64,000 nucleotides of DNA from an uncultured Gammaproteobacteria bacterium (lineage in GTDB: Bacteria; Patescibacteriota; Patescibacteriia; CAYZDG01). Shown here one piece after another: positions 128 to 56,811 of the stretch (its first letter is position 1; each line of letters starts with the position of its first letter). The translations under genes were made by a program, and so were the position numbers. The stretch covers positions 31,480 through 95,479 of the forward strand of contig CAZHXI010000001.1 of the NCBI GenBank assembly GCA_964536515.1. Direction: 5' to 3'. The notes beneath the pieces were generated by a model. That model was not told the DNA's origin and did not search any database. It saw only the letters and a list, made by a program, of their open reading frames with translations.

Positions 128-131
128 AGCC

Positions 132-8700: not shown

Positions 8701-10415
8701 CCATTAGCCTGAGCGGCCGTACGCCCCTGCGCTACTGCACCGAGGCTGCGGGAAACGCCTACGACGACAACCGCGATGGCACGAAAGAGTACTGGCGCGA
8801 TGCGGGGGTAGACGCGAATATTGATGGCGGCGGCACCGGCGGGGAGATAAGGGCTGCGTGCAACCCAGACCCCCTGGCGGCGTCGCCCTCTAGTACAGAT
8901 GATGGCTGCACGCTGGCTGAGATGAGCTCCGGGTGGGCGGTGGAGGAGCTTTCGGGTATGCACCTCTGGAACGTTCACTGGAGCCAGGTCGCCCGCATTG
9001 TGGCAGACGGCGACTACAACGCCTGCAATAAGCACTACTCCGTAATGCCAGAGCTACGTGAGTACACGTTCGAGATGCACGAGCCAACTAGGTCCGTTAC
9101 GCGTTTCGGCTTCTGGACAGACTGGCAGAACGACAGCGAGGGTGAGACCTGGGCTTTCTTCGGCGTCGACCGCGGCAGCGGACTCATCAACTACTTCATC
9201 GGCTACGTCAACGATACGGCGGGCAGCGGCGAGGACTGCACCGTGGACTTCAAGATCGTCACCAAGGAGCAGTGCTCGGTCGTCGCCGAGGTTCGGGCAG
9301 ACGATACGCACACGGCGTGGTTCGACCGTTTCAACGGCGGCACCTACTCCGACGCTAGCTTGGTCCCCGCCAACGATGCCGCTCCCTACGGCGCCCTGCC
9401 GGCTAACGCCGCTGCAGACCTGATGGGTGCCACCTGCGATCCCGATATCCTGGCAGCTTCGGACTCGCTGAGTATCGATGAGGGCTGCGCGTTGCCCATC
9501 GGCAAGTTCGCCCTGCGGGCCAACGGCTCGCAGGCCGAGCGCGGCGGCACGCCGCTGGCCTGTCCCGTGGGCGGGTGCGCCGTGCCGCAGTGCACCCTCG
9601 ACCGAGCCAACAGCTGCGGCACCGCTGGCCAGACTACCGCCTGCTTCGATGCACTGGCTACGCCGGGAATCGGCTTCTGCTCCGGCAACCAGGTGCCCAG
9701 CGCAGCGAACGAGGGAACCAGGGTCGAGGGCGCCGTGCGCCTATCGCAGATGTTCGCCCGCAGCTACTACACCTGGACCCTAGACCCCGCCACCCACCGC
9801 TACCGCATCAACGACTGCCTTAACGACGATACGATTCAGGTAGCCATTGCCGCATCCCCCACCGGGGTAGACTCCGGCAGCGGTTGCTGGGACAGGCGCA
9901 AGCTGCTATCCACGCCAGATCCTGCCCCCACCACGCTCCGCCCGCGGGTACCCGAGATTAGCATCAACGGCAATTCCAGCGACACGCCCGAGGTGGCAGC
10001 CAGCGTGGGCGATACTGTGGAGCTGCGCTTCAGCTCGCTGCTGAACGCCGACCGCCTGCCGCTGCGCTTCATCCTGGTTGACTGGGGCGACGGCGAGCGG
10101 ACCGTTACCTCGCGGCTGAGCATCAACCACCAGCCGTCCGTGGCTAGCGGCCACCTGTTCACGCACACCTACTCTACCCGGCCGACCACGACCTGTGGGT
10201 CCGACTTCTGCGCCACCATTCGGGTGCAGATCGAGGACAACTGGGGCTTCTGCAACGGCGCACTCCCTGCGACGAGCTACAATATCAACAATGGCAACAT
10301 GAGCCTCAACCAGAGTGGCGCCGGCTGCTTCATTGGGAACGCCACCGATAGCCTCCGCTGGACCAGGGCAACCACTACCCTCCGCTTCTCCACCGCGGTA
10401 GAGGAAGACGTCTAG
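2757..10415 (+). CDS. Giant (2552 aa) Cys-rich cell-surface protein with CBM-like beta-sandwich modules and a C-terminal PKD-like domain
   Basis: N-terminal TM/signal (LILGTLVAAALLGTTLIATVSVA). More than 10 repeats of C-x(8-15)-[DN]-x-x-G-C-[QRST]-x-[FYL], e.g. DDAGCRKLL, DDVGCQAFVP, VDVGCSEFTS, RNVGCQAFMD. Three NGGFE/NGGFD-type carbohydrate-binding-like modules. VDWGDGE PKD-like motif near the C-terminus. Confidence 0.7.
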   Translation: MERRRLSGLILGTLVAAALLGTTLIATVSVARLRERAFAAVGFGGTGAILKTITQGSGAAIATPGFPVVADPGVRTQNFLSSLGDAIGSALESSGKLLVKNTLSRFLGELARGTAEWIATGSPGQMPLFETQGGYEFMAATRDAATAEFLDSLGSAYGVDVCNPELGAKLVIHYSSLPSSRLDTPRCSLKQIQENWAELLPNNQAFLQRFSAALEPDQNDLGIALTLEKKLVVERETKANAAILERLESQGLKPLKDLAGNIVTPAAAVNEQIRQTLGLSAQKELSFIGDPVADAIGIFTNTLGNRLREKWLKQGFVNIADVFNRTGSSGGLFGGAGRYSVAEPRFAALAGLELGTSGSIDVVGELSACSDPADPGFGNQCVLDPSFAQAVQQQLTVREAMERGLLRGEWAFGYLQDGSEPRYGTGYPYSAMVVMRTKRIVPVGWELAAQAAKAFGQGVTLDHVLHCYEDPAAAGDGSRPVDCQINGINPFYHLVDPNWLLKVPATYCVRRGASAELLTEEYICNQDTNGDSFVDCVNLDSNINGIAAPVDGDPSSKDEYLRVIQRAEYCADEQSCIAENADGTCRAYGYCFEEKQTFSLGDNACPSQFASCVGVTTPSGQQTAYIQDSVQTCPTGAAGCQWYSRRKSGANWSVAPTDRIYLNSEAATCSPDDAGCRKLLRFGQGTNLVPNGGFEQYDRHLPSDPNGTDNFFINGGTARGRAYTNAADVYEGQASFRLTRSGSISVLAETGSEVAGRTFTASVASKNCTAGSLSLLDGDGGAIGAPVNLQISGPDTDNGQWHTATITGTTQAPGTSLTVQVTGLNASVDSDCLLDSLALTEGSARATLAYGAGRSVHISSRATQCSQDDVGCQAFVPTSGDPTVFGRITANDYCPAQCVGYQNYSPLINTFEEREGASAPAPSNFIPSTARSCSAVDVGCSEFTSLAEVPEGGERVAYFSQVQQCVPEATPSVGTYYTWEGSDTAGYQLRVWQLLRTNISGPLAPCTNLSLDPSIQPPVCLDTAENRATCDLNAGNPDCREVFDSNATSHGVLWSRVVQATNDCQQYRRTGTDFVYNVSPRLARRCPAAANGCRQYRGATGGNTRTVLLADFETSSAAGWGGTRVALTTEALQVGGHSLLALGASGSVTLRRTEPLAMRPGHQYMLTVWVKGSDRDIPAGNVTLRGGLRRLLGALGATPASAQPGPAENLVFNAGPTPIGGEWQRLQIGPVTPTTQASTMTFDITVAIGGLRSAYFDNIQLKEVTSDTFVVQNSWETPQACDNPPGLPNGTDSNPRTEPGAMVGCSAYRVAGRQVTLRSFNRLCAERNVGCQAFMDTANSASPFAQRFNSTCSLGAPVATPTVCSSDGYQRCVVGAGEASCRYTQTSDYDPSSAAEPLVADEDQVPVLGDRVTYLVDDPAAYCSAEVAGCTQLGLPRINKQAWSGSGAAPANGIVSWQDVYKVANPDQFSRSLCSVGQLWCAAHRVSGGGTLTFRDPQGSLAGESRTCEYRTGVQIGSQLVTGWFRTGTDDGCRATSNYSLPLNGGPGYDRFVGICPAQYSGCTNYRNPQPSATGGERDNYFLRSSVDSSSCNGLVDVAGGCMLFRDPAQPALYSSQYSYPPYRLPGQAPVATSTLDSNVVLKVRRDRSCSQWYSCGSSVAVPGSPTGQRVCTSLTSCTRLNPATNQCDNPGGGSFPVGSAGFPNEFTFASPDDSTRWRNLSGYTVPGIQFTGGPGLVSRGFTPYSNMEQIGLSATVSNGGFDDAADSLASTDGVGWHSCDSGAPAVPAAQACSYVVSANRVREGRAALRFSSTVGAVTTLRHGVVAVAPNSTYAVSVQLNTVDLLAGDVALEVLDGGGTVQLRLQQGSGQGWQTLLGQFTATGSVTLRLVASADASGSAYVDDVKIEPVLQVNGEPRFVGQQCRVYPRGDAPSCRYTQADGEYRGITGYCLQPDPRDPSRCIQWWPVDVVAGQSFDVFGETISLSGRTPLRYCTEAAGNAYDDNRDGTKEYWRDAGVDANIDGGGTGGEIRAACNPDPLAASPSSTDDGCTLAEMSSGWAVEELSGMHLWNVHWSQVARIVADGDYNACNKHYSVMPELREYTFEMHEPTRSVTRFGFWTDWQNDSEGETWAFFGVDRGSGLINYFIGYVNDTAGSGEDCTVDFKIVTKEQCSVVAEVRADDTHTAWFDRFNGGTYSDASLVPANDAAPYGALPANAAADLMGATCDPDILAASDSLSIDEGCALPIGKFALRANGSQAERGGTPLACPVGGCAVPQCTLDRANSCGTAGQTTACFDALATPGIGFCSGNQVPSAANEGTRVEGAVRLSQMFARSYYTWTLDPATHRYRINDCLNDDTIQVAIAASPTGVDSGSGCWDRRKLLSTPDPAPTTLRPRVPEISINGNSSDTPEVAASVGDTVELRFSSLLNADRLPLRFILVDWGDGERTVTSRLSINHQPSVASGHLFTHTYSTRPTTTCGSDFCATIRVQIEDNWGFCNGALPATSYNINNGNMSLNQSGAGCFIGNATDSLRWTRATTTLRFSTAVEEDV

Positions 10416-10418
10416 GAT

Positions 10419-13400
10419 ATGCTTCGTCTGCCATTGAATTTCAGCTCACCTCGCTTCGCCCGAGGCGTCGCGGTTGCGATGCTGGCCCTGGTCGCTATCG
10501 TAGCTGTGCCGGTGGCGTTGCCGGGCGGGGGAGTGAGCGATTCGGCGCCGGTGCGGTCGGCGATCGGCGTAGCTACGGTGCACGCGGTTACCGATACTGA
10601 TATTCAGATGCAGGCCGAAGCCAGGGAGGCAGCGGCGAACAAGACCGATAGTGACTCGTGGTTCACCCGGGTCATCAAGGAGCTGATGTACGCCATTATC
10701 CAGTTCTTCGGCTACATGACCGGGCTGCTGTTCAAGGTGCTAGAGATGATTGCCCAGTACAACGGGTTCACCACCGAGCCGATCGTGGTGAAGGGCTGGA
10801 CCATAGTCCGGGACGTCTGCAACATGTTCTTCGTCTTCGCCATGCTGCTCATTGCCTTCGGCACCATACTGCGCATCCAGGCCTACCACTACCGCAGCCT
10901 GCTGTTCAAGGTCGTGCTGATGGCGGTGCTCATGAACCTTTCTAAGTCTATCGTCGGCGTGCTCATAGACCTTTCGCAGATCGTAATGCTTTCGTTCGTG
11001 AGCGGGTTCAAGCACATGGTGGCGGGCAGCCTGGCCCAGGCCTTTGGCGTGGATAAGATACTAAGGTTGGTACCAACTGACTCCGGCACTAACGCTGTTA
11101 CCGCTGGGCAGGTGAACGATGCTCTGGGCGCAACCGGCGGCGACGGCGTGGTTGCCAGCGCGGGTACGCTGCTGGCGTCGTTCATTCTGGCTGCGCTCAT
11201 CATGGCTCTCATCTTCATTACCGTTCTAGCCATTACGGTGCAGCTCATAGTACGTGTGATAAAGCTATGGATTCTCACCATCATGGCGCCCATCGCCTTC
11301 GCCGGAACCCTGTTCAAGGGCCTGGGCTCAATGGCCGGCAAGTGGTGGGACGAGCTGACCAAGGAGCTGGTGGCCGGCCCCACGCTGATGTTCTTCCTCT
11401 GGCTGGTGCTGGCTATTAGCTCGGCTAACAGCGGCGAGGTGTTCGGCGCCGGCAGCCATGCGGCCGGCTCGTTCAACCCGCTGAACCTGGAGGCTGCCAG
11501 CGCCGGGAACCTAGTGAACCTGTTCGTGGTAGTGGGCTTGCTGTGGGCCGGCTTGGGAGCAGCCAAGGCGGGCGGTACCGCCGCCGCAGGCGCGGTAGGC
11601 TTCGGCCTGGGCAAGCTATCGAGCATCAGCCGCGGCTCTGCTCGCCTGGCGGGGAAGGGGGCAGCGGGCGTGGGCCGCTTCGGCCAGCGCTGGGCTGCGC
11701 AGGGCCTGTCTAAGAGCGGTATCCAGGCGCGCTACGAGATGGCCAAGGAAGGCATTCGAGAGTCTACCGCTGGCAAAGCGGTGCGCTTCTTTGGCAAGGA
11801 GGCTACCGAGCAGCGTTGGGCTGCCCGTAAGGCGATACGTCGGGAGCGCATTCTGACGCACATGGATACCGCGGCGAAGTCCGCAGACCTCGCGGGCCAG
11901 CCGATTGGGTGGATTCAGTCTGCCCGCCGTAAGCGTGAGCAAAAGTGGCGCGTCGAGTCTAACGTGGCTACCGCCAAGTACATGAAGGAGCTAGACGAGC
12001 AGGGGATCAACGACAATGCCAGCATTAGGGCGGCGCTGGCTTCCAATATGAAGGACGGCAAGGTGCAGAACGTAGATAAGCAGGCGGCGCTGCTGCGCCA
12101 GCTGGCGAGCAAGGGCAAGGTTCTGGATGCTAATCGCGACATTATCGAGAACACGGCGGGTATGTCGGATGGCTCCCGTGCCGCGCTGCTCGCTGCCTTC
12201 AAGGACCACGACACCAGCGCCATTAAGAGCGACGGCAGCATCCGTTCCGACGCCGAGGTAATGGAGGAGATGGAGTCGGCCATGAAGGGCGACGCCGATC
12301 GCGGCGCCAAGAACAAGAGGGTACGCGGCATTGCTGCCAAGGTCCGTGTGGACGAGAGGGGCCAGGTTGCCAACTCGACAGCCATCGCGACCCTCCGCAA
12401 CCTGGATGAGGACTACATTGAGCCGCTCGATAAGAAGCTGAAGGACGATATTAAGGGGGCTATCCTGCTGACGATCCACAACGCCAACCAGAGTGGCGAC
12501 ACCCAGCTGCGGGATGAAATGGAGAAGAAGTACAATCAGCTGTTCGCCCAGGGAACCGACAAGCAGGGCAACGCCCTCCCCAAGCTTGAGCTAGACAAGG
12601 ATACCGGACAGGTGAAGGACGACGCCATGCGTGCCGTGCAGCAGAAGGCTGCACGCAAGCAGGAGCGTGACCAGATCAAGGAGGTCAGCATGAAGCGTGA
12701 TAGCCTGGTACCCCTAGATGAGGGCGAGAAGGCGCTGCAGAAGCTGGTAGCCGCCATTGATGGCGCTCCAAAGAAAATTGAAGAGCTAAGGACTAAACTT
12801 GCGGAGCTATCAACCATCGACACGTCAACGAAGGCGGGACGTGGTTGGCATAAGCAGGCTACCATCGACGTAGCTCGCATACAGAAGGAGCTCGTCGACG
12901 GCGCTGAAAAACAAACAAAGGATGAGAATGGAAATCGAAAACCTGAGTTTGTCTACCGTGGCAACGACGGCTCGGTGATCGATCCTGGCGTCCTAGTCAA
13001 TCGAATGCTTGGTGGTAACCTTGAGTCTAGGCTCGATGCTGTCCGTGAGGATGTAGCTTGGAGCAGGGCTCAGCCCGATGATTCTAAGCGTCTCGCGTCT
13101 GATCAATTGCAGGTAATCTCTGCTCGATTCAACCGCATTCATAAGGTGGCTCCCCCGAAGGGTCCAGCATCGGCAGGTAGCCCGTCAGGTCGAGCGACTG
13201 ATACAAGGTACCTCGCCGGAGAGTTCGTCCAGCCACGGCAGGCGGTGAGTAGCATCGCCGATCCTTTGGTCAGTAAGGCACAGGGGGCGGTGAGGCAGGC
13301 ATTCCAGCAGATCGATCAGGGCCAGCGCGTAGCGAAGCTGGAGCCGGTGCTTAAGGAGGTGCAGGGTGCGATAAAGCAGATGCTGACTATTGATAAGCTC

Positions 13401-13535
13401 GACGAGGTTCAGAAGGGTGCGCTCACCGATATAGCAAAGGAGGCTGAAGATCTGAGCGGCAAGCTCGCTACCGCATCCGAGGCGGATGTATCAGCGATTG
13501 TCACCAAGATCAGCAAGCTGAAGAACCTAGCCTAG
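10419..13535 (+). CDS. VirB6/TrbL-like polytopic membrane protein with a ~600 aa charged coiled-coil-like C-terminal extension
   Basis: Signal/TM, then 6 or more hydrophobic helices (FFVFAMLLIAFGTIL, LIMALIFITVLAITVQLIV, etc.), then a long K/E/D/A-rich hydrophilic tail. Immediately follows the giant protein (stop, 3 nt, ATG). Confidence 0.55.
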   Translation: MLRLPLNFSSPRFARGVAVAMLALVAIVAVPVALPGGGVSDSAPVRSAIGVATVHAVTDTDIQMQAEAREAAANKTDSDSWFTRVIKELMYAIIQFFGYMTGLLFKVLEMIAQYNGFTTEPIVVKGWTIVRDVCNMFFVFAMLLIAFGTILRIQAYHYRSLLFKVVLMAVLMNLSKSIVGVLIDLSQIVMLSFVSGFKHMVAGSLAQAFGVDKILRLVPTDSGTNAVTAGQVNDALGATGGDGVVASAGTLLASFILAALIMALIFITVLAITVQLIVRVIKLWILTIMAPIAFAGTLFKGLGSMAGKWWDELTKELVAGPTLMFFLWLVLAISSANSGEVFGAGSHAAGSFNPLNLEAASAGNLVNLFVVVGLLWAGLGAAKAGGTAAAGAVGFGLGKLSSISRGSARLAGKGAAGVGRFGQRWAAQGLSKSGIQARYEMAKEGIRESTAGKAVRFFGKEATEQRWAARKAIRRERILTHMDTAAKSADLAGQPIGWIQSARRKREQKWRVESNVATAKYMKELDEQGINDNASIRAALASNMKDGKVQNVDKQAALLRQLASKGKVLDANRDIIENTAGMSDGSRAALLAAFKDHDTSAIKSDGSIRSDAEVMEEMESAMKGDADRGAKNKRVRGIAAKVRVDERGQVANSTAIATLRNLDEDYIEPLDKKLKDDIKGAILLTIHNANQSGDTQLRDEMEKKYNQLFAQGTDKQGNALPKLELDKDTGQVKDDAMRAVQQKAARKQERDQIKEVSMKRDSLVPLDEGEKALQKLVAAIDGAPKKIEELRTKLAELSTIDTSTKAGRGWHKQATIDVARIQKELVDGAEKQTKDENGNRKPEFVYRGNDGSVIDPGVLVNRMLGGNLESRLDAVREDVAWSRAQPDDSKRLASDQLQVISARFNRIHKVAPPKGPASAGSPSGRATDTRYLAGEFVQPRQAVSSIADPLVSKAQGAVRQAFQQIDQGQRVAKLEPVLKEVQGAIKQMLTIDKLDEVQKGALTDIAKEAEDLSGKLATASEADVSAIVTKISKLKNLA

Positions 13536-13536: not shown

Positions 13537-14340
13537 ATGTCCGTAGACCGCGCCACCGTAGATGCTGCCCGAGCTGCCGCCGCCAGCGCCATTGCCGCGG
13601 CAGGGGTAGACGAGTCGCAGCGTGCCGCTGCGGCCGCGGCTTGCGATACGGTGCTGTGGGGCATTACCCCGTACGCCGAGCTGGCCAGCTACCTGCAGGA
13701 GGCAGCCAAGCTGCCGCCGCCCGTAGCCGAGGCTCTGGCTAGGCGGCTGGATGTCTCCGCTAAGCCAGCCTGGGAGCAGGTTTGGGCGGGCCTAGACCAG
13801 CAGCAGCGCCACTGGAACAAGCAGGACCTCTCCGAAGACTACGCTAGCTTCGCCGCAGACCTAGACGCCGAGGTGGCCGAGGCGGCGCCGGAGCTGGCGC
13901 AGCAGCCTTCGGTTACGCCGCTGCTAGCCGAGCTGCTGGACGGCGGCGACAGGTACGACGCCACGGCGCTGCTAGCCTGGCTGGCGCAGCAGGGTAGGCT
14001 CGTGGGCGTGTGCATGCAGGACCGTGACATTCGTGAGGACTTCACCGAGTGGGTTACGGGCGCTCTGGGCGGGGGACAGGGCAAGCCCGCCATCGTCATT
14101 CCGGGGCCAGACCAGTGGAGCGCTCCGCTGACGGCGCTGCTGCTGCAGTACCTGCTGGAGGTGCGGCTGGGCTGGAACGCCGAGCAGTCTGCCATGGCCG
14201 CCATGTACCTGGCGCAGCAGCTGGCCAAGGCCAGCGGCGAGCACCGCTACGCTACCGCCGTGTACGGCGACGAGGCTACGGGCGAATTCCGCTGGCGGCC
14301 GGTGCGGCTGGAGAACGGCCAGGTCGTGTTCGCGGATTGA
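13537..14340 (+). CDS. Hypothetical acidic Ala-rich protein (secretion-locus associated)
   Basis: 267 aa ORF starting 1 nt after the previous stop. No recognisable motifs. Confidence 0.45.
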   Translation: MSVDRATVDAARAAAASAIAAAGVDESQRAAAAAACDTVLWGITPYAELASYLQEAAKLPPPVAEALARRLDVSAKPAWEQVWAGLDQQQRHWNKQDLSEDYASFAADLDAEVAEAAPELAQQPSVTPLLAELLDGGDRYDATALLAWLAQQGRLVGVCMQDRDIREDFTEWVTGALGGGQGKPAIVIPGPDQWSAPLTALLLQYLLEVRLGWNAEQSAMAAMYLAQQLAKASGEHRYATAVYGDEATGEFRWRPVRLENGQVVFAD

Positions 14341-14355
14341 TGCCTACGTAATGCG

Positions 14356-14383
14356 GTAGAGACGCATTGCAATGCGTCTCTAC
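14356..14383. repeat. Palindromic repeat family copy 1 (GTAGAGACG-CATTGCAATG-CGTCTCTAC), likely a bidirectional terminator
   Basis: Perfect 28-nt palindrome between convergent genes 13537..14340(+) and efp(-). Confidence 0.7.
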
Positions 14384-14415
14384 GTTCGTATTACCGGCGC
14401 ACCGGCCGTCCCTAC

Positions 14416-14979
14416 CTAGGCTCGTTCGACGTACGAATCCGTCTCGGTATTCACGATAATCTTGTCGCCCGCGTTCACGAACATGGGCACGCGCAGCTCG
14501 GCGCCGCCCGCCAGGGTGGCTACCTTGGTGGCGTTTCCGGCGGTGTCGCCCTTGGCGCTGCCCGGCGTCTCGGCTACCTCCACCGCTACCTTGGTGGGCA
14601 GGGTAGCCGCCACGGGCTGGCCCTTGAAGTACAGCACGTCTACCTCTAGCCCCTCGGATAGGTAGCATCCCTTGCCGCCGAGCTGGGCGTCGCTGAAGCT
14701 GAACTGGTCGAAGTCCTCGGTGCCCATGAAGGCGTAGCTGTCGCCGTCGCGGTACAGGTAGCTAGCCTTGCGGCGGACGATGTCCGCCTCGGGGTAGGTG
14801 TCGGAGGGCTGCACGGTCCGCTCCAGCGTGGCTCCCGTTAGCAGGTTGCGCATCTTGGTGCGCAGCGTGGCGCCGCCGCGGGCCACCTTGATGTGCTGGG
14901 TGAAGATGACGGTCCAGGGGGCGCCGTCTACCTCGATGACCGTTCCCAGCTTGAGCTGGTTCATCGTTAGCTGGGGCAT
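14416..14979 (-). CDS. efp: Elongation factor P
   Basis: MPQLTMNQLKLGTVIEVDG…KGDTAGNATKVATLAGGAELRVPMFVNAGDKIIVNTETDSYVERA, a strong EF-P signature. Start at internal ATG 14979; the track ORF extends to 15075. Confidence 0.9.
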   Translation of the reverse strand: MPQLTMNQLKLGTVIEVDGAPWTVIFTQHIKVARGGATLRTKMRNLLTGATLERTVQPSDTYPEADIVRRKASYLYRDGDSYAFMGTEDFDQFSFSDAQLGGKGCYLSEGLEVDVLYFKGQPVAATLPTKVAVEVAETPGSAKGDTAGNATKVATLAGGAELRVPMFVNAGDKIIVNTETDSYVERA

Positions 14980-15028
14980 ATGGTTGGGGTCAGGTAGATC
15001 CCTCGCTCCGCTCGGGATGCTCGGGCAG

Positions 15029-15277
15029 CTAGTGCTGCCCTCGCACGTACGGCAGCAGGGCCATGAAGCGGGCACGCTTTATGGCTTCGGCTACGCCGCG
15101 CTGGTGCCAGGCGCACACGCCGCTCTTGCGACGCGGCACTATCTTGCCGTAGGAGCTGGTGAAGCGCTGGAGGATGCCCGTCTCCTTGTAGTCGATGCCG
15201 CTGAGGTTGTTGGCGCAGAAGTAGCAGAAGCGGTCGCGGGCGAGGGGGGATGCTGGGGCGGGGGTACGTCGGTTCAT
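15029..15277 (-). CDS. rpsR: 30S ribosomal protein S18
   Basis: CYFCANNLSGIDYKETGILQRFTSSYGKIVPRRKSGVCAWHQRGVAEAIKRARFMALLPY, a canonical bS18. Confidence 0.85.
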   Translation of the reverse strand: MNRRTPAPASPLARDRFCYFCANNLSGIDYKETGILQRFTSSYGKIVPRRKSGVCAWHQRGVAEAIKRARFMALLPYVRGQH

Positions 15278-15295
15278 AGCTGTGATGGTGGACGG

Positions 15296-15733
15296 TTAGA
15301 AGGGAATCTCCTCGACCTTGATCTCGCCCTCGTCGGGCGGCAGGTCGTGGGTGGGAGCGGGGCTGGCAATTTCGGGGCGGGACTGGGTGCCGCCGCCAGC
15401 CGGGGCGCGGTCGAGCATAATCAGGCCCTCGGCGATGATCTCGGTGCGGAACTTCTTCACGCCCGTCTGGTCGTCCCAGGAGCGGGTCTTGATGCGGCCC
15501 TCCACGTAGACGCGCATGCCCTTGTGCATGTACTGCTGGCAGATTTCCGCCAGCCGGCCCCAGGCCACGACGCTGTGGAACTCCGTCTCCTCCTGCTTCA
15601 CGCCGGCCTGGTTGGTCCAGGTGCGGCTGGTGGCGACGCCGAGCGACGCGACCGACTGCCCGCTGGGGGTGGTGCGCACCTCCGGGTCGCGGGTTAGGTT
15701 GCCGATGATCATGGCGCGGTTGAGGTTGACCAT
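15296..15733 (-). CDS. ssb: Single-stranded DNA-binding protein
   Basis: MVNLNRAMIIGNLTRDPEVRTTPSGQSVASLGVATSRTWTNQAGVKQEETEFHSVVAWGRLAE OB-fold signature; acidic C-terminal tail ending DEGEIKVEEIPF. Confidence 0.85.
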   Translation of the reverse strand: MVNLNRAMIIGNLTRDPEVRTTPSGQSVASLGVATSRTWTNQAGVKQEETEFHSVVAWGRLAEICQQYMHKGMRVYVEGRIKTRSWDDQTGVKKFRTEIIAEGLIMLDRAPAGGGTQSRPEIASPAPTHDLPPDEGEIKVEEIPF

Positions 15734-15863
15734 ATGGGTAGTGAGTCGTTAGTAGTTGGTCGTAGGTTCGTTGGTCGGAAGTTAGAAGGTCGTCGGGTTC
15801 GATTGTCGTTCGTCGAATTTCCAACAATCGAATTTTCGACAAACGACCAGCGAGCTTTCGAAT

Positions 15864-16364
15864 TTATACGTTCTCGGTGGGGGCGGAGAGGATCTCGTCC
15901 AGCTTCTGGTCGAGGTCCTTCAGCTCTACCTTGGGCTTGGCCGGAGCAGCGGCGCGGGGGCGCCGGGTGGTGTGGCGGTCGGCGCCACGGTCCGCCTCGC
16001 GGTCGCGCATGCGGCTGGCCATACGATCCTTGGCCTTCTGCAGGCGTCCCTGCTCCTCGGCGGTAACGGCGTGCTTCTCCACGATTAGGTAGCGCAGCAC
16101 GTTCGGCACCAGCTTGAGGGTACCCTGCAGCGTGGGCAGGGTGTGGGGCACGGCGCGGAACTCGGCCACGGCGTAGGTGCCGTAGCGCTGGCCCTCCACG
16201 GGGTAGGCTAGGCGGGTGCGGCCGATGGTCGCCCCGTTGAGGATGGTTACGCCAGCCTTCTGCAGGGCTGCCTGCAGGGCGTCGGTAACGGTGTTAACCT
16301 CGGTGTCCTCGACGCCGGGGTGGATGATGTAGGTGCACTCGTAGTGCTTCTGGTCTTCGCGCAT
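15864..16364 (-). CDS. rpsF: 30S ribosomal protein S6 with an extended charged C-terminus
   Basis: MREDQKHYECTYIIHPGVEDTEVNTVTDALQAALQKAGVTILNGATIGRTRLAYPVEGQRYGTYAVAEF, a bS6 fold signature. Conserved rpsF-ssb-rpsR order. Confidence 0.85.
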   Translation of the reverse strand: MREDQKHYECTYIIHPGVEDTEVNTVTDALQAALQKAGVTILNGATIGRTRLAYPVEGQRYGTYAVAEFRAVPHTLPTLQGTLKLVPNVLRYLIVEKHAVTAEEQGRLQKAKDRMASRMRDREADRGADRHTTRRPRAAAPAKPKVELKDLDQKLDEILSAPTENV

Positions 16365-16533
16365 GCGATTCTATGGTTACCTCGCCCGTGGGGGAGAGGA
16401 TCTGTCTCCCCGGTAAAGCCCAGGGTAGGCAGATATGGATAACGTTTGTGGCTGGAAATTACACGGGAATCGCCTCTCCGTCAAGGACGGTTCATGGGGG
16501 CGTGGTCCCGTGGGGCAATGGCCATTTGCGTCG

Positions 16534-16564
16534 CGTAGAGACGGGTTTAAAACCCGTCTCTACG
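16534..16564. repeat. Palindromic repeat family copy 2 (GTAGAGACG-GGTTTAAAACC-CGTCTCTAC)
   Basis: 31-nt near-perfect palindrome in the divergent intergenic region between rpsF(-) and the methyltransferase(+). Confidence 0.7.
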
Positions 16565-16603
16565 ACGTTTGGTACATTCGGCAACGTTTGTTATGGTGCC
16601 CCC

Positions 16604-17803
16604 ATGAACCGATACGTATTCCTCCTGGGCCGGGAGGCTGCCCTGGGCGCAGCCGAGGTAATTGCTACCGGCCGCTTCTCATCTATCGATGCTGCTGCCA
16701 GCGGCGGCGAGGTTCTAGTTGCCTCTACAGATACTGCCCTGGAGAACCCCCAGGCCTTCTTGGACCGTATCGGCGGGACGGTGAAGCTAGCAGGGGTTGT
16801 TTCGGAGGTCGAGGGACAGCCGTCTCTGGAAGACCTGCTAGCCCTGCTACCCGGCGAGGGCAAGGTTCACTTCGGCATCAGCTGGTACGGCGGGCAGGTG
16901 CCGGACCTAGAGAAACTGGGGCGCCAGATGAAGGCGGCGCTGCAGGCGCAAGATCGCTCCGCCCGTTTCGTCAGCAGCCGCAGTAACCCGCTGTCCTCCG
17001 TCATCGTGCGGACGCAGAAGCTGCTGGGCGCGAGGGGATGTGAAATCATAGTGGCAATCCTTAACGGTGGTGACGTAGGGTCGAGGCGCGCCTCGACCCT
17101 ACTGGGCCGGACCATCGCTGCACAAAATTTTATTGAGTACGGCCGGCGTGATGCCGGACGCCCCAGCCGCAACATCAACCGCGGCATGCTGCCGCCCAAG
17201 GTGGCGCAGGTGCTGCTGAATTTGGCGCAGGTTAAGCCGGGCGACACGGTGCTGGATCCGTTCTGCGGCACGGGCACGGTGCTGCAGGAGGCGCTGGTAA
17301 TGGGTGCCGGCAAGGCTATCGGCCGTGACGTAGATGACGACGCGGTGGAGGAGGCCACCGAGAACCTTTCGTGGCTGCCACGCCGCGCCCAGGTAGCGGG
17401 TACGTGGGAGGTCTACCGCCACGACGCACGCCAGGCCGACCGTAAGCTGCAGGATGGATCCATCGATGCGGTGGTAACCGAGCCGCTGCTGGGGCCGCTG
17501 CGGCCGCCGCGCCAGCACGAGGCGGTGGTCAAGCTGGTGGGGGAGCTGCAGCAGCTGTACCGGGCGTCGTTCGTGGCTGCGGCGGCCGCCCTAAAGCCCG
17601 GCGGCCGGCTGGTGGCCGTGCTGCCCGTGATCGGCGAGGTTTCCTCTGCCGACCTGGGTGGGCTGCCCGGCCTGAGCTCCGTCAGCCTGCTGCCCCAGGA
17701 CCTAGCCGCAAGGTTCGGCATCGACGTTGGCCAGCGATTGGTGTACCGCCGCCCCGGCCAGGCCGTAGGCCGCGCGGTGGTGGTTTTTGAAAAAAACCTG
17801 TAG
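16604..17803 (+). CDS. SAM-dependent RNA methyltransferase (Trm11/RlmL-like N2-G/N6-A family)
   Basis: DPFCGTGTVLQEALVMGAG SAM-binding motif I and a downstream VVTEPLLGPL (D/N-PPY-like) region. Start at ATG 16604; the track ORF from 16373 runs through the palindromic repeat. Confidence 0.55.
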   Translation: MNRYVFLLGREAALGAAEVIATGRFSSIDAAASGGEVLVASTDTALENPQAFLDRIGGTVKLAGVVSEVEGQPSLEDLLALLPGEGKVHFGISWYGGQVPDLEKLGRQMKAALQAQDRSARFVSSRSNPLSSVIVRTQKLLGARGCEIIVAILNGGDVGSRRASTLLGRTIAAQNFIEYGRRDAGRPSRNINRGMLPPKVAQVLLNLAQVKPGDTVLDPFCGTGTVLQEALVMGAGKAIGRDVDDDAVEEATENLSWLPRRAQVAGTWEVYRHDARQADRKLQDGSIDAVVTEPLLGPLRPPRQHEAVVKLVGELQQLYRASFVAAAAALKPGGRLVAVLPVIGEVSSADLGGLPGLSSVSLLPQDLAARFGIDVGQRLVYRRPGQAVGRAVVVFEKNL

Positions 17804-17830
17804 AGACGAGGCGCGCCTCGTCTCTACAGG
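17797..17830. repeat. Palindromic repeat family copy 3 (CCTGTAGAGACGAGGCG|CGCCTCGTCTCTACAGG), overlaps the methyltransferase stop codon
   Basis: 34-nt perfect palindrome; the TAG stop at 17801-17803 lies inside the left arm. Confidence 0.7.
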
Positions 17831-17879
17831 TCCGCCGTTGGCGTACCCGCCGCGCGGCCGCTTGCCCCGTTCATAGAAC

Positions 17880-17909
17880 GGACGATTCGTGGTATAATTT
17901 TTTCGTTCT
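17880..17909 (+). promoter_or_regulatory. Extended -10 promoter (GACGATTCGTGGTATAATTTTTT), near-leaderless start of the second secretion-locus operon
   Basis: TGgTATAAT at 17890-17899; ATG at 17910 is 10 nt downstream. 19/22 identity with the motif at 2171-2192. Confidence 0.6.
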
Positions 17910-19004
17910 ATGCCTACCGAGAATGCCGCGAAAGAGCAGCCGGCGAGCGTGGCGCCCGCGTCATCGCTGGGCGTGGTCGTGAGGGGCAGCGACGGCAGCT
18001 TCCGCGTGTGGCAGGACGGCGAGTGGCGGCTGCTGGCCGCGGCTCCCGTGGTAGCGGCGCCGTCTAAGCCGACGTTCGGCGGCCCCAATGCCGCTAGCTA
18101 CTTCAGCGCAGCCGACGAGCAGGAGGCCCGCCGCCTAGCCCAGCGCCTAGATACCGCTCCCGAGCACAAGCGCTACTCCCTCGCGAAGATTATTGGGCAG
18201 GTGCAGGAGAGGGCTAAGGTGAGCATTGCCGGGCCTGCGGCGGACGCCTTCCGCCGTGCCGTGCTCACCTTCCTGCGGGGTACCCGGGGGCCGGTAGACT
18301 TCGGCGCCGTGCTGGTGCGTCCGGCTGACCAGGGCGGCGTGGGGCTGACGTCCGCTGAGTCGCAGGCGCTGGTGGCAATACTCTCCGTCATAGGCGACAA
18401 GGTCCGCGCCGAGGGCGGCGAGGTGGTGGATGACCCGGCGTTGAATCCGCCGGCCGCGGCGCCCGTGCCGCCGAAGCCGTCGGTCAAACCCGACGTAGAG
18501 ACGAGGCGCGCCTCGTCTCTACCGCCCGCGTCACCAACCCCCGTCGCACCCGTGCCGCCGCGGCCGATTGCGCCCCCTCTGCCCCGTCCCGCGGTTCCCC
18601 TGACGCCGCTCGCCAAGCCCCAGGCGGTGAACGACGTTCGTCCGGCTGCTCCAGCCGCGCGGGTAGCTCCACCCCGCCGCCTGGTTGGGCCGGTGGACGA
18701 GCTCCGCCAGATGGACATTGCCACCTTCCGTACGCTCGGCGCTACGCCGGCAGACCAGGCGAACGCCGTCGTGGCCAAGGTGCAGGCGCTCGGCCGGGAG
18801 TCGCTCACCCGGCACGCCGAGGGCCTGGCAGCCTGGCGTGAGTGCCCCGTGTACACCGCGTACCGCGCCATCGGCCTGCAGAGCATCCAGGGGGGCAAGC
18901 CCGTGGCCCAGGTCGTCGCCGAGCTGTTCCGTGACGGCAAGGCTACGCTGACCGAGGCTGAGTTCAACGCCGTGGCCGACGCCAACCGCCGGCTTCGCCT
19001 CTAG
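17910..19004 (+). CDS. Hypothetical protein with a central Pro-rich linker (secretion-locus associated)
   Basis: 364 aa; PAPVPPKPSVKP…PVAPVPPRPIAPPLPRPAVPLTPLAKP linker. Contains an in-frame copy of the palindromic repeat (encodes DVETRRASSLPP). Confidence 0.5.
   Translation: MPTENAAKEQPASVAPASSLGVVVRGSDGSFRVWQDGEWRLLAAAPVVAAPSKPTFGGPNAASYFSAADEQEARRLAQRLDTAPEHKRYSLAKIIGQVQERAKVSIAGPAADAFRRAVLTFLRGTRGPVDFGAVLVRPADQGGVGLTSAESQALVAILSVIGDKVRAEGGEVVDDPALNPPAAAPVPPKPSVKPDVETRRASSLPPASPTPVAPVPPRPIAPPLPRPAVPLTPLAKPQAVNDVRPAAPAARVAPPRRLVGPVDELRQMDIATFRTLGATPADQANAVVAKVQALGRESLTRHAEGLAAWRECPVYTAYRAIGLQSIQGGKPVAQVVAELFRDGKATLTEAEFNAVADANRRLRL
18495..18522. repeat. Palindromic repeat family copy 4, located inside a CDS
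   Basis: GTAGAGACGAGGCGCGCCTCGTCTCTAC, a 28-nt perfect palindrome within the Pro-rich linker of the 17910..19004 ORF. Confidence 0.7.
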
Positions 19005-19009
19005 CGCAT

Positions 19010-19483
19010 ATGGCCCAGCTGCAGCACTTCGTCGTCCCCCAGTTCATAGATATCGAGAGCAAGATTCTGGGGCCCATTACCACCCGGCAGTTCCTGTGGG
19101 TGCTGGGCGCCGGGCTCATTTTCTTCATCGCCCTGCGCACGCTGCCGGTGCCGGCCTTCATTGCCGTAGCGGTGCTGGATGTAGCCGTGTTCGGCAGCTT
19201 CGCCTTCGTGAAGGTGAACGGCCAGCTCTTCCATAACTTCCTGGTCAGCGCCATTGCCTTCGGGCGGCGGCCGAGGCTGTACCTATGGACCGCCGGGGTA
19301 GAGGATGACGGAGTTTCCGTTGCCGCCGTCAGCCCGGCGGAGGCGGTGGGCCAGCGTCCGCTGATTCCCGCCGGCAGGCTGAACGAGCTGGCGCTGCTGG
19401 TAGACACCGGCGGCACCTACCAGGCCGTGACCGCATTCAAGGAAATACCGCCTATCCCCGAAGACCATGTCCCCCAAGCCTAA
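19010..19483 (+). CDS. Small two-TM membrane protein, PrgI/VirB3-like position upstream of VirB4
   Basis: 157 aa; hydrophobic hairpin FLWVLGAGLIFFIALRTLPVPAFIAVAVLDVAVFGSFAFV. Gene-order analogy to Gram-positive T4SS (PrgI then PrgJ). Confidence 0.45.
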   Translation: MAQLQHFVVPQFIDIESKILGPITTRQFLWVLGAGLIFFIALRTLPVPAFIAVAVLDVAVFGSFAFVKVNGQLFHNFLVSAIAFGRRPRLYLWTAGVEDDGVSVAAVSPAEAVGQRPLIPAGRLNELALLVDTGGTYQAVTAFKEIPPIPEDHVPQA

Positions 19484-20141
19484 GCTAAAGAGGGCTCCTG
19501 CTGCCGCCGCGCTGCCGTTCTCGTACCTGCGCGAGGGCAGCGTCATCATGCGAGACGGCAGCCTGCGCGCGGTGCTGCTGGCGTCGTCCATAAACTTCTA
19601 CCTGAAGTCTGAGACCGAGCAGAACGCTATCGTCAGCGGCTACATCGGCTTCCTCAACACGCTCAGCTTCCCGCTGCAGATCGTCATTCAGTCGCGCCGG
19701 CTGAACATAGACGGCTACCTGGCGCAGCTCGAGACTCTGGAGCGGCAGCAGACCAACGAGCTGCTGCGGCTGCAGACGGCAGACTACCGGCAGTTCGTTA
19801 AGGAGCTTCTGGAGCTGGAGGATATTATGACCAAGCGCTTCTACGTGGTCGTGCCCTACGACCCGGCGGGGGATAAGACGCGCGGCTTCATCAGCCGGCT
19901 GACATCTGCCTTCTCGGCGCCGGCTGCGGTGGCGCTGCGCGAGGAGAAGTTCCGTCGGGCCTCGGAGGAGCTATCCAAGCGGGTGGCGCTGGTGCAGAGC
20001 GGCCTGGGCCAGATCGGCATAACCACGGCGGCGCTCGACACCCCCAGCTTGATAGAGCTGTACTACCGAACCTACAACCAGGAGGTAGCCGACGTGCAGC
20101 CGCTGTCGGCCGTCGGTAAGCTGCAGGTAGATGCTTCGTAG
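19467..20141 (+). CDS. Hypothetical protein, possibly the N-terminal domain of a split VirB4-like ATPase
   Basis: 224 aa; overlaps the upstream gene by 17 nt and the downstream VirB4-like gene by 11 nt out of frame. Combined 224+637 aa approximates full-length VirB4 size. Confidence 0.45.
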   Translation: MSPKPKLKRAPAAAALPFSYLREGSVIMRDGSLRAVLLASSINFYLKSETEQNAIVSGYIGFLNTLSFPLQIVIQSRRLNIDGYLAQLETLERQQTNELLRLQTADYRQFVKELLELEDIMTKRFYVVVPYDPAGDKTRGFISRLTSAFSAPAAVALREEKFRRASEELSKRVALVQSGLGQIGITTAALDTPSLIELYYRTYNQEVADVQPLSAVGKLQVDAS

Positions 20142-22044
20142 TATGGATGACGCCCCACGCTTCACCCCCGCAGACCTCAGCCGGTCCCCTCGTCCTTCTG
20201 ACTCGGGGCAGGCTCCCTCGGTTCCGGCTCCCGAGCGTCGCCAGCAGCAGGCTGCCCAGCTGGAGGCCGAGCAGGTCTACCGCCGCGGCGTGGTCTCGGT
20301 GCGCGAGCTGCTGGCGCCGCCCAGCTTCAAGGTTGACTCCAGCTTCGTGCAGCTCGGCGGGGTCTTCGCCCGGACCCTGTTCGTCAGCGCCTACCCCCGC
20401 TACCTGACGGTGGGCTGGTTCGCCAGCGTCATCAACTACAGCGCCACGTTGGATATCGCCATCTACTTCTACCCGCTCGCCGCCGACGTGGTTCTCAAGA
20501 AGATGCGCAAGAAGGTGGGCGAGCTGGAGGCGCAGCTGTCCGAAGACAGCGAGCACGGCGCCCCGCGCGACCCCGCCCGTGAGGCAGCGGTCCGCGACCT
20601 CGAGCAGCTCCGCGACGACCTGACGCAGGGAACCGAGCGGTTCTTCCAGGTCGGGCTGTACGTTACGCTCTACGCGCCGTCGGCGGCCGAGCTCAACCGG
20701 CTAACCGAGCGTATAGAGGGCGTCATCGGCAGCCGCCTGGTCTACACCAAGCGAGCCTTCTTCCAGGCCGAGCAGGGCTTCAATAGCACGCTGCCGCTCG
20801 CCGACGACGAGCTGGGGCTGCCGCTGAACCTGAACACCTCGCCGGCAGCCGCCAGCTTCCCGTTCACCTCGGCTGACCTCACCGGCGACAGCGGCATCAT
20901 GTACGGCATCAACCGGCACAACAATAGCCTCATCATCTTCGACCGGTTCTCGCTGCAGAACGCCAACATGGTGGTGTTCGCCACGGCCGGCAGCGGCAAG
21001 AGCTACGCGGTGAAGCTAGAGATCCTGCGCAGCCTGATGCTGGGCACCGACGTCATCGTCATCGACCCCGAGATGGAGTACCGCCACCTGTGCGAGGCGG
21101 TGGGCGGCACGTACATCAACGTATCGCTTACGGCCGACACCAAGATCAACCCGTTCGACCTGCCGGCGGCGGCCCCGGGCGGCGAGACCAAGGCCTCCGA
21201 CGTCATCCTGACCGCCGTCATCGCCATCAAGGGCCTGCTGCGGCTGATGGTGGGCGGCCTGACCCCGCAGGAGGATTCGCTGCTCGACCGCGCCATCCTC
21301 GAGACGTACGCCAAGAACGACATTACCCCCAGCGCCGACCTGACCAAGGTTACCGCGCCGCTCATGTCCGACCTGGTGCAGGTGCTGGGCGGCCTCACCG
21401 GCGGCGAGAGCATTGTGCAGCGGCTGGTGAAGTACACCTCGGGCACCTTCTCGGGCCTGTTCAATGCCCCCACCAACGTGCGCCTCTCCAACCAGCTGGT
21501 CGTCTTCTCGGTCCGCGACCTGCAGGACGAGCTGCGGCCGCTCGCCATATACAACATTATCCTGTTCATTTGGAGCGTCGTGCGCAGCGAGCTGAAGAAG
21601 CGGCTGCTTGTAATCGACGAGGCCTGGTGGCTTATGCAGTATGAGGACTCAGCTCGGTTCATCTACGCCCTGGTGAAGCGCTGCCGCAAGTACTACCTGG
21701 GCATCACCACCATTACCCAGGACGTGCAGGACTTCCTCAAGTCGCCCTACGGCCCCGCCATCATCAATAACTCAGCCCTGGCGCTGCTGATGCGCCAGCA
21801 CCCCAACGCCATTAGCATGGTGCAGCAGTCCTTTTTGCTCACCGAGGGCGAGAAGTACCTGCTGCTCGAGGCGAACGTGGGCGAGGGTATATTCTTCGCC
21901 GGCAGCCGCCACGCCGCCGTTAAGGTCATGGCCTCCTACGGCGAGGACCAGCTGATTACCACCGATCCGCGCCAGCTGCTGGAGATTGAGCACGCCAAGC
22001 AGGCCTTCGCCCAGGCGCAGGATGCGGCGAAGCCTAACAGTTGA
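20131..22044 (+). CDS. VirB4/TrbE/PrgJ-like type IV secretion ATPase
   Basis: Walker A VVFATAGSGKSY, then IDPEMEY, Walker B LLVIDEAWWLM, then TQDVQDF, the typical VirB4/TraC family motif order. Low-complexity ~80 aa N-terminus. Confidence 0.8.
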   Translation: MLRSMDDAPRFTPADLSRSPRPSDSGQAPSVPAPERRQQQAAQLEAEQVYRRGVVSVRELLAPPSFKVDSSFVQLGGVFARTLFVSAYPRYLTVGWFASVINYSATLDIAIYFYPLAADVVLKKMRKKVGELEAQLSEDSEHGAPRDPAREAAVRDLEQLRDDLTQGTERFFQVGLYVTLYAPSAAELNRLTERIEGVIGSRLVYTKRAFFQAEQGFNSTLPLADDELGLPLNLNTSPAAASFPFTSADLTGDSGIMYGINRHNNSLIIFDRFSLQNANMVVFATAGSGKSYAVKLEILRSLMLGTDVIVIDPEMEYRHLCEAVGGTYINVSLTADTKINPFDLPAAAPGGETKASDVILTAVIAIKGLLRLMVGGLTPQEDSLLDRAILETYAKNDITPSADLTKVTAPLMSDLVQVLGGLTGGESIVQRLVKYTSGTFSGLFNAPTNVRLSNQLVVFSVRDLQDELRPLAIYNIILFIWSVVRSELKKRLLVIDEAWWLMQYEDSARFIYALVKRCRKYYLGITTITQDVQDFLKSPYGPAIINNSALALLMRQHPNAISMVQQSFLLTEGEKYLLLEANVGEGIFFAGSRHAAVKVMASYGEDQLITTDPRQLLEIEHAKQAFAQAQDAAKPNS

Positions 22045-34173: not shown

Positions 34174-34196
34174 TCTGTTTCCTGTATTCTACCTGC

Positions 34197-56314: not shown

Positions 56315-56758
56315 ATGTACGTCGGCGAGCAGCTAGCAGCAGACGTCCTGGAGGCGCAGAAGCGCCGCGACCAGTCTGCCGTAGATATCCTGCGGCAGCT
56401 TCGGTCTGCGTTCCACAATGCCGAGATTGCGGCGCGTGGCCAGCTCGACGATGCGGCGACGATCAAGTTCTTCCAGCAGCAGCTGAAGCAGCGCGAGGAG
56501 GCGTCGGCGGTATTCCGCAAGGCTGGCCGCATAGAGCTAGCCGAGAAGGAGGAGGCCGAGGCAGCCGTCATCCGAGGCTACCTGCCGCCGGCGATGACGC
56601 CGGAGCAGCTCGACCAGCTGGCTGCCGCTGCCGTGGCCGAGGCTGGCAAAGACTTCGGCGCGGCGATGAAGCTGGCCGTAGCCAAGGCTGCCGGGGCTGC
56701 CACGGGGCAGGAGGTATCGGCGGCCGTGCGCCGGGCAATAGAGGGTGCCGGCACGTAA
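56315..56758 (+). CDS. yqeY: GatB/YqeY-domain protein
   Basis: Conserved rpsU-yqeY arrangement; YqeY-like helical sequence (…IRGYLPPAMTPEQLDQLAAAAVAEAG…). Confidence 0.75.
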   Translation: MYVGEQLAADVLEAQKRRDQSAVDILRQLRSAFHNAEIAARGQLDDAATIKFFQQQLKQREEASAVFRKAGRIELAEKEEAEAAVIRGYLPPAMTPEQLDQLAAAAVAEAGKDFGAAMKLAVAKAAGAATGQEVSAAVRRAIEGAGT

Positions 56759-56781: not shown

Positions 56782-56811
56782 CGTAGAGACGAGGCGCGCC
56801 TCGTCTCTACG
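56782..56811. repeat. Palindromic repeat family copy 5 (CGTAGAGACGAGGCG|CGCCTCGTCTCTACG)
   Basis: 30-nt perfect palindrome downstream of yqeY; acts as terminator and/or insulator before the giant adhesin promoter. Confidence 0.7.

Follow-up and report, generated by a model that had tools for sequence, protein, structure and literature searches.

A palindrome of the double-foot REP type in frame within the linker of a conserved gene from a Patescibacteria-like bacterium

Introduction

The closest described relatives of the element studied here are the repetitive extragenic palindromes (REPs) that accompany subclass 2.4 of the REP-associated tyrosine transposases (RAYTs, or TnpA_REP). In the sections on this subclass by Quentin, Siguier, Chandler & Fichant (2018, PMC6006769), the enzymes carry the HuH motif NH[IFV]H, a WQ motif and a YIxNNP motif and are assigned to "Cyanobacteria, Bacteroidetes and various phyla," while their REPs are called "double foot," with GT[AG]G at the 5′ and C[TC]AC at the 3′ end. 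The same sections report in-frame REPs inside tnpA_REP genes, as well as insertions into unrelated genes that are tolerated in flexible linkers or loops. Here, we describe a 28-nt palindrome at positions 18495 to 18522 of a 64,000-nt stretch of DNA from an uncultured bacterium (contig CAZHXI010000001.1, positions 31,480 to 95,479; the whole stretch is hereafter called the window), which lies in frame within the Pro-rich linker of a conserved gene.

Set against those sections of the subclass 2.4 description, the window element likewise forms a long hairpin with GT[AG]G and C[TC]AC ends, and its kind, too, ranges over Bacteroidetes, Cyanobacteria "and various phyla"; its exact sequence recurs inside a RAYT gene of this type, and a transposase locus with REPs of the same foot exists in a genome of the candidate phyla radiation (CPR). 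Differences are that the host here is Patescibacteria-like with 65% GC, that the 64 kb hold no RAYT, that the copy lies in an unrelated gene, and that many cores share one 9-nt foot, GTAGAGACG. The abundance of the family on phage contigs is a further point that goes unmentioned in the pertinent sections of both PMC6006769 and PMC3733652.

In-frame intragenic REPs of GTAG and CGTC type are catalogued for Opitutus, Rickettsia, Thauera and others in the relevant parts of Di Nocera et al. (2013, PMC3733652), where REPs are also proposed to act as RNA elements. As described there, these elements, including the Rickettsia palindromic elements (RPEs) RPE-4 and RPE-6, resemble ours in being small palindromes within open reading frames (ORFs) whose frame is kept; they appear as short peptide insertions tolerated in loops or linkers, often at several sites per gene, and also occur at ORF ends. 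However, most of the 24 GTAG families in that account carry an unpaired GTAG at one end only and have stems of 6 to 9 bp, whereas the GTAG of the window element is paired with CTAC in a stem of 12 to 14 bp; the hosts stressed there are replication and repair genes, whereas ours is a protein of a secretion cluster. In-frame REPs are thus already documented, and the element at 18495 is a further case and not a new kind of element.

A broader likeness links the window family to REPINs and to the REPs of E. coli and Pseudomonas (RAYT groups 2 and 3; Bertels & Rainey 2011; Nunvar et al. 2010, 2013), which share a GTAG-headed hairpin and a proposed dependence on RAYTs, and whose high copy number the window family probably matches. 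Those elements usually come as inverted doublets around a spacer, lie outside genes and are uniform within one genome, whereas each window element is a lone perfect palindrome, the cores vary and several copies lie inside genes. Different REP classes have been described at orthologous RAYT loci (Nunvar et al. 2013). Our literature search found no paper on REPs in Patescibacteria and no systematic one on phage REPs, and a literal search for GTAGAGACG returned primer lists only. Another Rickettsia element, RPE-1, is about 100 to 150 bp long, is confined to Rickettsia and lacks a GTAG foot; we know of no link between it and RAYTs. It is nonetheless comparable as a selfish palindrome carried in frame by functional protein genes (Ogata et al. 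2000, as related in part of PMC3733652).

Results

A perfect palindrome with the anatomy of a double-foot REP

The sequence GTAGAGACGAGGCGCGCCTCGTCTCTAC at 18495 to 18522 is a perfect 28-nt palindrome. It begins at codon 196 of an ORF starting with ATG (17910..19004), whose frame stays open throughout, and encodes the nine residues VETRRASSL, just as an earlier interpretation based on the letters of the DNA (the sequence-only reading) had it. The features concerned are:

18495..18522, no strand: palindrome classed as a double-foot REP, with GTAGAGACG as foot and stem, AGGCGCGCCT as core, then CGTCTCTAC; in frame, encoding V196-E-T-R-R-A-S-S-L204
17910..19004, plus strand: host gene of a conserved 364-aa protein with an N-domain (residues ~20-175) and a C-domain (~260-364), directly upstream of a PrgI / TraC-VirB4-like type IV secretion system (T4SS) cluster
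18441..18674, plus strand: Pro-rich, indel-prone linker that hosts the REP (residues ~178-255)

Because it combines GTAG...CTAC feet with a stem of 12 to 14 bp, the 28-mer can be classed, from its sequence, as a double-foot REP of the RAYT subclass 2.4 (Bertels group 4) kind. The hairpin may be drawn as 12 bp with a 4-nt loop or as a perfect palindrome of 14 bp, and its calculated folding energy is −12.4 kcal/mol as DNA and −21.5 kcal/mol as RNA (z = −3.8).

Two further exact copies lie in the window, at 17800-17827 and 56783-56810, making three identical ones in total, where dinucleotide-preserving shuffles lead one to expect 0.00 matches even with up to 3 mismatches. The sequence-only reading had called these copies intergenic; the identity stands for both, while the copy at 17800 overlaps a methyltransferase stop codon. 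More generally, the window contains six perfect GT[AG]G...C[TC]AC palindromes against 0.7 expected (Markov-simulated sequence, 2 mismatches allowed), all of which begin with GTAG and five of which fall within 4.2 kb; those at 14356, 16535 and 17075 have stems other than that of the 28-mer. As DNA, the six copies fold with −12 to −18 kcal/mol (z from −2.8 to −7.4). Intergenic DNA contains three of them, two soon after a stop codon and the third between divergent genes; of the others, two lie within genes and one shares bases with a stop codon.

Two of the three reading frames on each strand pass through the element without a stop, the third holding the TAG of GTAG. As the 28-mer is its own reverse complement, both strands encode VETRRASSL, and the peptide indeed recurs in the antisense ORFs 17702..18088 (minus strand) and 18484..18672 (minus strand). 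The sequence-only reading was therefore right to blame the palindrome for spurious antisense ORFs.

With regard to the source of the DNA, the GC content of the window is ~65%. Among named sequences, its elongation factor P (EF-P) is 61% identical to that of Candidatus Komeilibacteria and ~50% identical to Parcubacteria/Patescibacteria proteins, pointing to a CPR/Patescibacteria-type bacterium of unusually high GC.

The host is one gene with a variable linker

We found 11 homologues of the host protein in metagenomes, with identities from 87% down to 25%. In their alignment, the N-terminal part is conserved up to residue ~175 and the C-terminal part from ~255, while every homologue has its own length and sequence in the Pro-rich middle, which spans roughly 80 residues in the window protein. 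Modeling with AlphaFold2 from the homologue alignment gives the same division, with pLDDT of 85-94 in the C-domain and 85-92 in a helical part of the N-domain (~90-170; lower ahead of that part), and with pLDDT <50 and no secondary structure at residues 178-213 and 220-255. The linker around the REP-encoded residues 196-204 is hence predicted to be disordered. The host protein had no Pfam match, and its model found no fold match in the PDB (Foldseek, E <= 0.001).

The sequence-only reading had held open that the ORF might be two genes with the element at their junction. One way to put this is that the ORF is a pair of genes or a pseudogene, with the palindrome as junction or terminator and a frame that is open by accident in GC-rich DNA; long spurious ORFs are indeed common at 65% GC, and in one distant homologue (L006, below) the N- and C-domains lie in different frames just after the REP. 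However, the C-domain is 78-90% conserved and in the frame of the N-domain in homologues P0001 to P0008, palindrome-free ones included. The linker contains neither a start codon nor a promoter-like TGGTATAAT box, unlike the DNA before the ATG at 17910, and the gene is a single gene call in L001 to L005. Judging from these alignments, we take the ORF to be one real gene and regard a split or dead gene as a very improbable explanation.

The gene is flanked by that of a UPF0020-type methyltransferase on one side and by the PrgI / TraC-VirB4-like / T4SS-pilin cluster on the other, an arrangement kept in L001 and L004.

Presence, absence and variation of the element in orthologues

A comparison of orthologues had been proposed as a check, and for this the DNA of five homologues was fetched and aligned. 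The closest relative, L001 (GCA_964589475.1; 83% nucleotide and 87% protein identity), carries at the same codon the 28-nt palindrome GTAGAGACGAAAAATATTGCGTCTCTAC, encoding VETKNIASL; its nine terminal bases on each side are identical to those of the window palindrome and its core is unrelated. In L002, L003 and L004, the alignment shows no element at the orthologous site. The site of L003 comes near to a clean empty one, lacking the 28 nt and differing in its flanks by −2 and +3 nt. The net length difference of the window relative to these element-free orthologues is +27 nt for L003 and +45 nt for L002.

A bare insertion of 28 nt, a length that 3 does not divide, would shift the frame, and accompanying linker indels are needed, a point missed in the sequence-only reading. 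Of the proposed in-frame, REP-like insertion, the in-frame part is borne out, while an insertion of the bare 28 nt is not. The wider proposal, that such an element had invaded a tolerant low-complexity linker, is supported by the double-foot anatomy, the single conserved host gene, the predicted disorder and the presence or absence of the element among orthologues.

A more distant homologue, L006 (884-1854), has GTAGAGACGAGGCATACCTCGTCTCTAC in its linker, with the REP at 1394-1421. Here, the N-domain is in frame 2 and the C-domain in frame 1, the break falling just after the 28-nt REP; this could reflect a gene that is split or has become a pseudogene, or an error of sequencing or assembly.

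The family is associated with RAYT genes in other genomes

The same REP family is physically linked to RAYT genes elsewhere, a CPR genome included. A contig of a Bacteroidales metagenome-assembled genome (MAG; L014, 30% GC) holds a gene of HUH-Y1 RAYT-like type for 209 aa (112-741, plus strand), within which the exact 28-mer lies at 385-412, in frame (VETRRASSL) and right behind the HUH motif. The protein has the motif PNHIH and reads, in order, PNHIHVIIVIINVETRRASSLQQ, VWQSRFNDH and YIRQNP. Its 437 homologues are annotated as "REP element-mobilizing transposase RayT" or PF01797 and belong to Bacteroidota, Cyanobacteria, Ignavibacteria, Candidatus Moranbacteria and "Patescibacteria group." Among the best 120 of the 437, at least 64 carry peptides of the GTAGAGAC...GTCTCTAC type in this position, and the distance from the HUH motif to a conserved MSKISPKPGSL motif ranges from 28 to 103 residues. 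The palindrome peptides of these homologues (VETRHASSL, VETQCIASL, RDEAMPRLY, RDVACNVST and others) often stand two or three in tandem, and either open frame is used (24 versus 40).

The second locus is in Candidatus Moranbacteria (L143; GCA_030645735.1, 40% GC; 9819-10619). A RAYT gene at 10001-10579 has one REP 22 nt upstream, one inside in frame and one 12 nt downstream, with one more just after rpoC; all have the GTAGAGACG foot, on four different cores. The protein carries PNHLH, AWQPRF and YIQTNP and scores 26.2 bits for Y1_Tnp against a Pfam cutoff of 23. By this arrangement, we read the locus as a REPtron in a CPR genome. The subclass 2.4 assignment of both RAYTs is one by motifs and REP insertion, as distinct from the hidden Markov models of Quentin et al. 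The Moranbacteria locus also has a pair of bAvd and reverse transcriptase genes at 19379-20579, probably a diversity-generating retroelement.

One family, many cores, in MAGs and on viral contigs

In a scan of species-representative genomes, the exact 28-mer was found in 15 contigs (L007-L021) of 7 MAGs labeled Bacteroidales, Dysgonamonadaceae, Paludibacter, Saprospiraceae and Gammaproteobacteria, with a local GC of 26-57%. Apart from occasional local repeats, the 28 nt are all that these contigs share with the window. Mis-binning is possible for the short contigs; three of the matches are on contigs of 246-357 kb. On one contig (L012:7724-7771), the 28-mer is centered in another palindrome, with TTAGAGACCA before and TGGTCTCTAA after it, to give a perfect palindrome of 48 nt, which suggests a hairpin element nested within another. 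On another (L015), similar flanks (...ttgg, REP, g(g)taacgcc...) surround two members, each with its own core, at 206-234 and 359-386, a distance of 150 nt, and this appears to be a larger repeat unit carrying exchangeable palindromes.

Scanning the viral contigs of IMG/VR with the pattern GTAGAGACG-N(8-12)-CGTCTCTAC yielded at least 120 stretches (L022-L141), with 150 instances among the matches listed, to which the following counts refer. Nearly all are 28 nt long (133/150), and at least 65 different cores occur, which are almost always self-complementary: 127/150 have 0 or 1 mismatch in the five core pairs, where ~3.75 would be expected by chance, and the mismatches inspected fall in the central four bases. 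That all 150 begin with GTAG is a consequence of the search pattern. No flank consensus was seen in these instances beyond a mild preference for C/T at position −1 (71%). Taken together, these features point to a hairpin that may be recognized through foot and stem, irrespective of the bases next to the loop.

Some viral copies have noteworthy locations. L026 has copies just after its capsid and protease genes, and in-frame copies occur in a tape measure protein (L054:8467-10590, minus strand), a capsid-domain protein (L080:11781-13847, plus strand) and two Mu-like portal proteins (L088:2558-4273, minus strand; L113:3116-4816, minus strand), each time outside the Pfam-matched domains. A 38-nt query spanning the 56783 copy (56778-56815) had no match among INPHARED cultured-phage or PLSDB plasmid records.

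Several other classes of element were considered and dropped. A miniature inverted-repeat transposable element of a DDE insertion sequence should be flanked by a target-site duplication, and none was found: flank identity was 0 nt in 87/133 and 1 nt in 33/133 of the listed instances, as by chance. An intrinsic terminator does not fit either, with no T-run after any window copy and at least 4 T within 10 nt, on either side, in 13/133 listed instances. A CRISPR repeat was rejected on the irregular spacing of the copies (14356, 16535, 17075, 17800, 18495, 56783) and their position inside or next to conserved genes. Core covariation, irregular spacing and the RAYT link likewise spoke against a type IIS restriction site, a Xer/dif-like 11-6-11 site and a cloning adaptor. 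Rfam scans of the whole window at gathering thresholds, and a permissive scan of 14200-19100, returned tRNAs and chance matches only.

Further copies in the window and the neighboring methyltransferase gene

The other five copies and the gene that carries two of them are as follows:

14356..14383, no strand: REP of the same family with another core, GTAGAGACGCATTGCAATGCGTCTCTAC; 15 nt past the stop of ORF 13537..14340
16535..16563, no strand: 29-nt REP of the same family, GTAGAGACGGGTTTAAAACCCGTCTCTAC; between the divergent S6 and methyltransferase genes
16604..17803, plus strand: UPF0020/THUMP-type methyltransferase (Pfam PF01170, E = 8.9e-16); contains the 17075 REP and ends on the TAG of the 17800 REP
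17075..17102, no strand: second in-frame intragenic REP, GTAGGGTCGAGGCGCGCCTCGACCCTAC, in a loop of the UPF0020-type methyltransferase, encoding VGSRRASTL
17800..17827, no strand: REP identical to that at 18495; its TAG at 17801-17803 is the methyltransferase stop; 83 nt upstream of the host-gene ATG
56783..56810, no strand: intergenic REP identical to that at 18495; 25 nt after the YqeY-like ORF 56315..56758 (stop included)

The 14356 copy stands between convergent genes, EF-P being on the minus strand, and that at 16535 is ~40 nt upstream of the likely methyltransferase start at 16604, a start deduced from the L003 gene call and the alignment. If its flanks (ACCT...AGGT) are counted, the palindrome at 17800 reaches 36 nt. 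The 56783 copy precedes by ~70 nt the ATG (56882) of a 1663-aa fn3/Ig-repeat protein. The 17075 copy has the core of the 18495 element and a foot altered on both arms in a compensating manner (GTAGGGTCG...CGACCCTAC).

In the methyltransferase loop occupied by the 17075 copy, L003 has a perfect GTAGAGACGCGGCATGCCGCGTCTCTAC (VETRHAASL) with net length unchanged, L004 an imperfect 23-nt GTAG...CTAC hairpin and L001 decayed sequence. In three of five related genomes, namely the window, L003 (~1446-1475) and L004 (1103-1131), the methyltransferase gene takes its stop from the TAG of a GTAG palindrome, with a different core in each. The L002 gene ends on a TGA of its own, with no element at the stop, and has a further in-frame copy near its C-terminus (VETQNIASL). 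All intragenic copies in the CPR loci (6/6) use the GTA-GAG-ACG frame; we dropped this bias as meaningful since RAYT genes use both open frames.

Apparent exchange of cores at occupied sites

At the shared codon of the host gene, the window and L001 differ at 9/10 core positions and at 0/18 foot positions. The probability of at least 9/10 core differences is ~1e-6 at the gene-wide divergence of 17%, and that of at least 8/10 is 6e-4 at the linker divergence of 26%. Since so uneven a distribution is improbable at the observed divergence, the core has apparently been replaced and did not drift. Apparently swapped cores with the site kept are also seen at the methyltransferase loop and the methyltransferase stop, for three orthologous sites in all.

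A bolder proposal is that occupied REPs are rewritten in place, that linkers and loops thereby act as small hypervariable peptide cassettes, and that phages ferry the family between phyla. Each exchange would bring in the core of a different family member and leave the 9-nt feet and flanking codons untouched, and RAYT-catalyzed strand exchange or REP-REP conversion are possible routes. The identical 28-mer in different phyla and the family on at least 120 viral contigs bear on this proposal, which we offer as tentative and on balance doubtful.

Other features of the window

Some observations concern the neighborhood and the remainder of the window. The VirB4-like ATPase downstream of the host gene is split into a 224-aa TraC-like ORF (19467-20141) and a 637-aa P-loop ORF (20131-22044), and relatives have it likewise. 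The extended −10-like TGGTATAAT box (within 17886-17912) ends only ~10-15 nt before the host ATG and is conserved in all five orthologous loci; a second gene has the box TGGTATCAT (within 56866-56884), again ~10-15 nt before its ATG. A −10-like box so near the ATG, and conserved in five loci, suggests that mRNA leaders may be very short or absent in this lineage. Two very large ORFs at 2757-13535 (2552 aa and 1038 aa) are conserved in L001 and had no Pfam match at E <= 0.001. The longest inverted repeat of the window (34118-34183; 26-nt arms, 85% complementary, 14-nt spacer) is AT-richer than its surroundings and unrelated to the GTAG family.

Discussion

We consider it highly probable that a double-foot REP of the kind spread by subclass 2.4 RAYTs, a miniature and non-autonomous hairpin element, entered the linker of the host gene, that the frame was restored and is now read through, and that the core was later exchanged. 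On this account, a REP copy would have arrived before the window genome and L001 diverged, either inserting into the disordered Pro-rich linker or taking the place of part of it. Small linker indels would then have restored the frame, with selection retaining only the frame-restored version, and the ribosome would read through the hairpin, adding the nine residues VETRRASSL to an unconstrained segment. In one of the two lineages, the core would have been exchanged afterwards. The mobilizing enzyme would be a RAYT acting on single-stranded hairpin DNA, presumably encoded elsewhere in the source genome and recognizing the hairpin in that form. We infer that the insertion was neutral or nearly so; the gene could survive it because the frame was restored and because the sequence and length of the linker are unconstrained. 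What the analysis shows are the anatomy and copies of the element, the integrity of the host gene, the predicted disorder of its linker, the polymorphism among orthologues and the tie of this REP family to RAYT genes in other genomes; the copies just past stop codons or between genes also have a placement typical of REPs.

Several points weigh against this account. Searched by tblastn with 120 RAYT homologues, neither the window (64 kb) nor the orthologous loci L001 to L006 (50 kb) yielded a RAYT, and approximate queries for the E. coli RAYT and IS200 TnpA gave no match in the window either; the only match was L014. We found no clean empty site, other linker indels preventing a base-by-base reconstruction of the event, and an element of 28 nt, not being a multiple of 3, cannot keep the frame unless something else changes as well. 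Translation through the element is likely in view of the conserved frame, from which it is deduced. To our knowledge, no family has yet provided direct in vivo evidence that a RAYT transposes REPs; for E. coli TnpA_REP, the 2012 work of Messing et al. is said to have shown only binding and cleavage of REPs.

The palindrome might instead be a selected functional site, for example an mRNA hairpin that pauses ribosomes between the two domains or stabilizes a processed transcript, or a protein-binding or cruciform DNA site. Its RNA hairpin is strong (see above), L001 has a hairpin at exactly the same codon despite its other core, and a role of REPs as RNA elements has been proposed (in part of PMC3733652). 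Against this, the element is absent from 3/5 close orthologues, the identical 28-mer recurs where neither the sequence context nor the phylum is related, and there is neither a T-run, as seen in only 13/133 listed members, nor a match to an Rfam family. For these reasons, a gene-specific function is unnecessary, and we regard a selected site as unlikely, if somewhat less so than the split gene dealt with above; it is, moreover, compatible with a transposon origin, as an exaptation. An artefact of assembly or library construction, such as an adapter or linker, has in its favor that the 28-mer has an AscI site between inverted BsmBI sites, with the look of a cloning cassette, and that the exact host protein is on record in no other assembly, so that the 18495 copy is without independent confirmation. 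Yet at least 65 cores of the family are spread over hundreds of independent assemblies, and an independent one, GCA_964589475.1, has a variant at the same codon. Copies also stand in frame in conserved genes with compensating flank indels, and the class is described in finished genomes, which makes an artefact the least credible of these explanations.

If, as we believe, a RAYT-mobilized REP entered the linker, the locus offers a natural series of REP tolerance within genes: filled in the window, with a swapped core in L001, element-free in L002, L003 and L004, and frame-broken in L006. For annotation, the consequence is that such palindromes create spurious antisense ORFs, donate stop codons and add 9 to 10 residues to real proteins, and annotators who recognize them can avoid wrong gene calls in Patescibacteria and phages. 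Should in-place exchange of cores or spread by phages prove true, the finding would gain importance. As it stands, it adds a high-GC CPR genome to the known range of the subclass 2.4 REP family and leaves the current picture of REPs and RAYTs unchanged.

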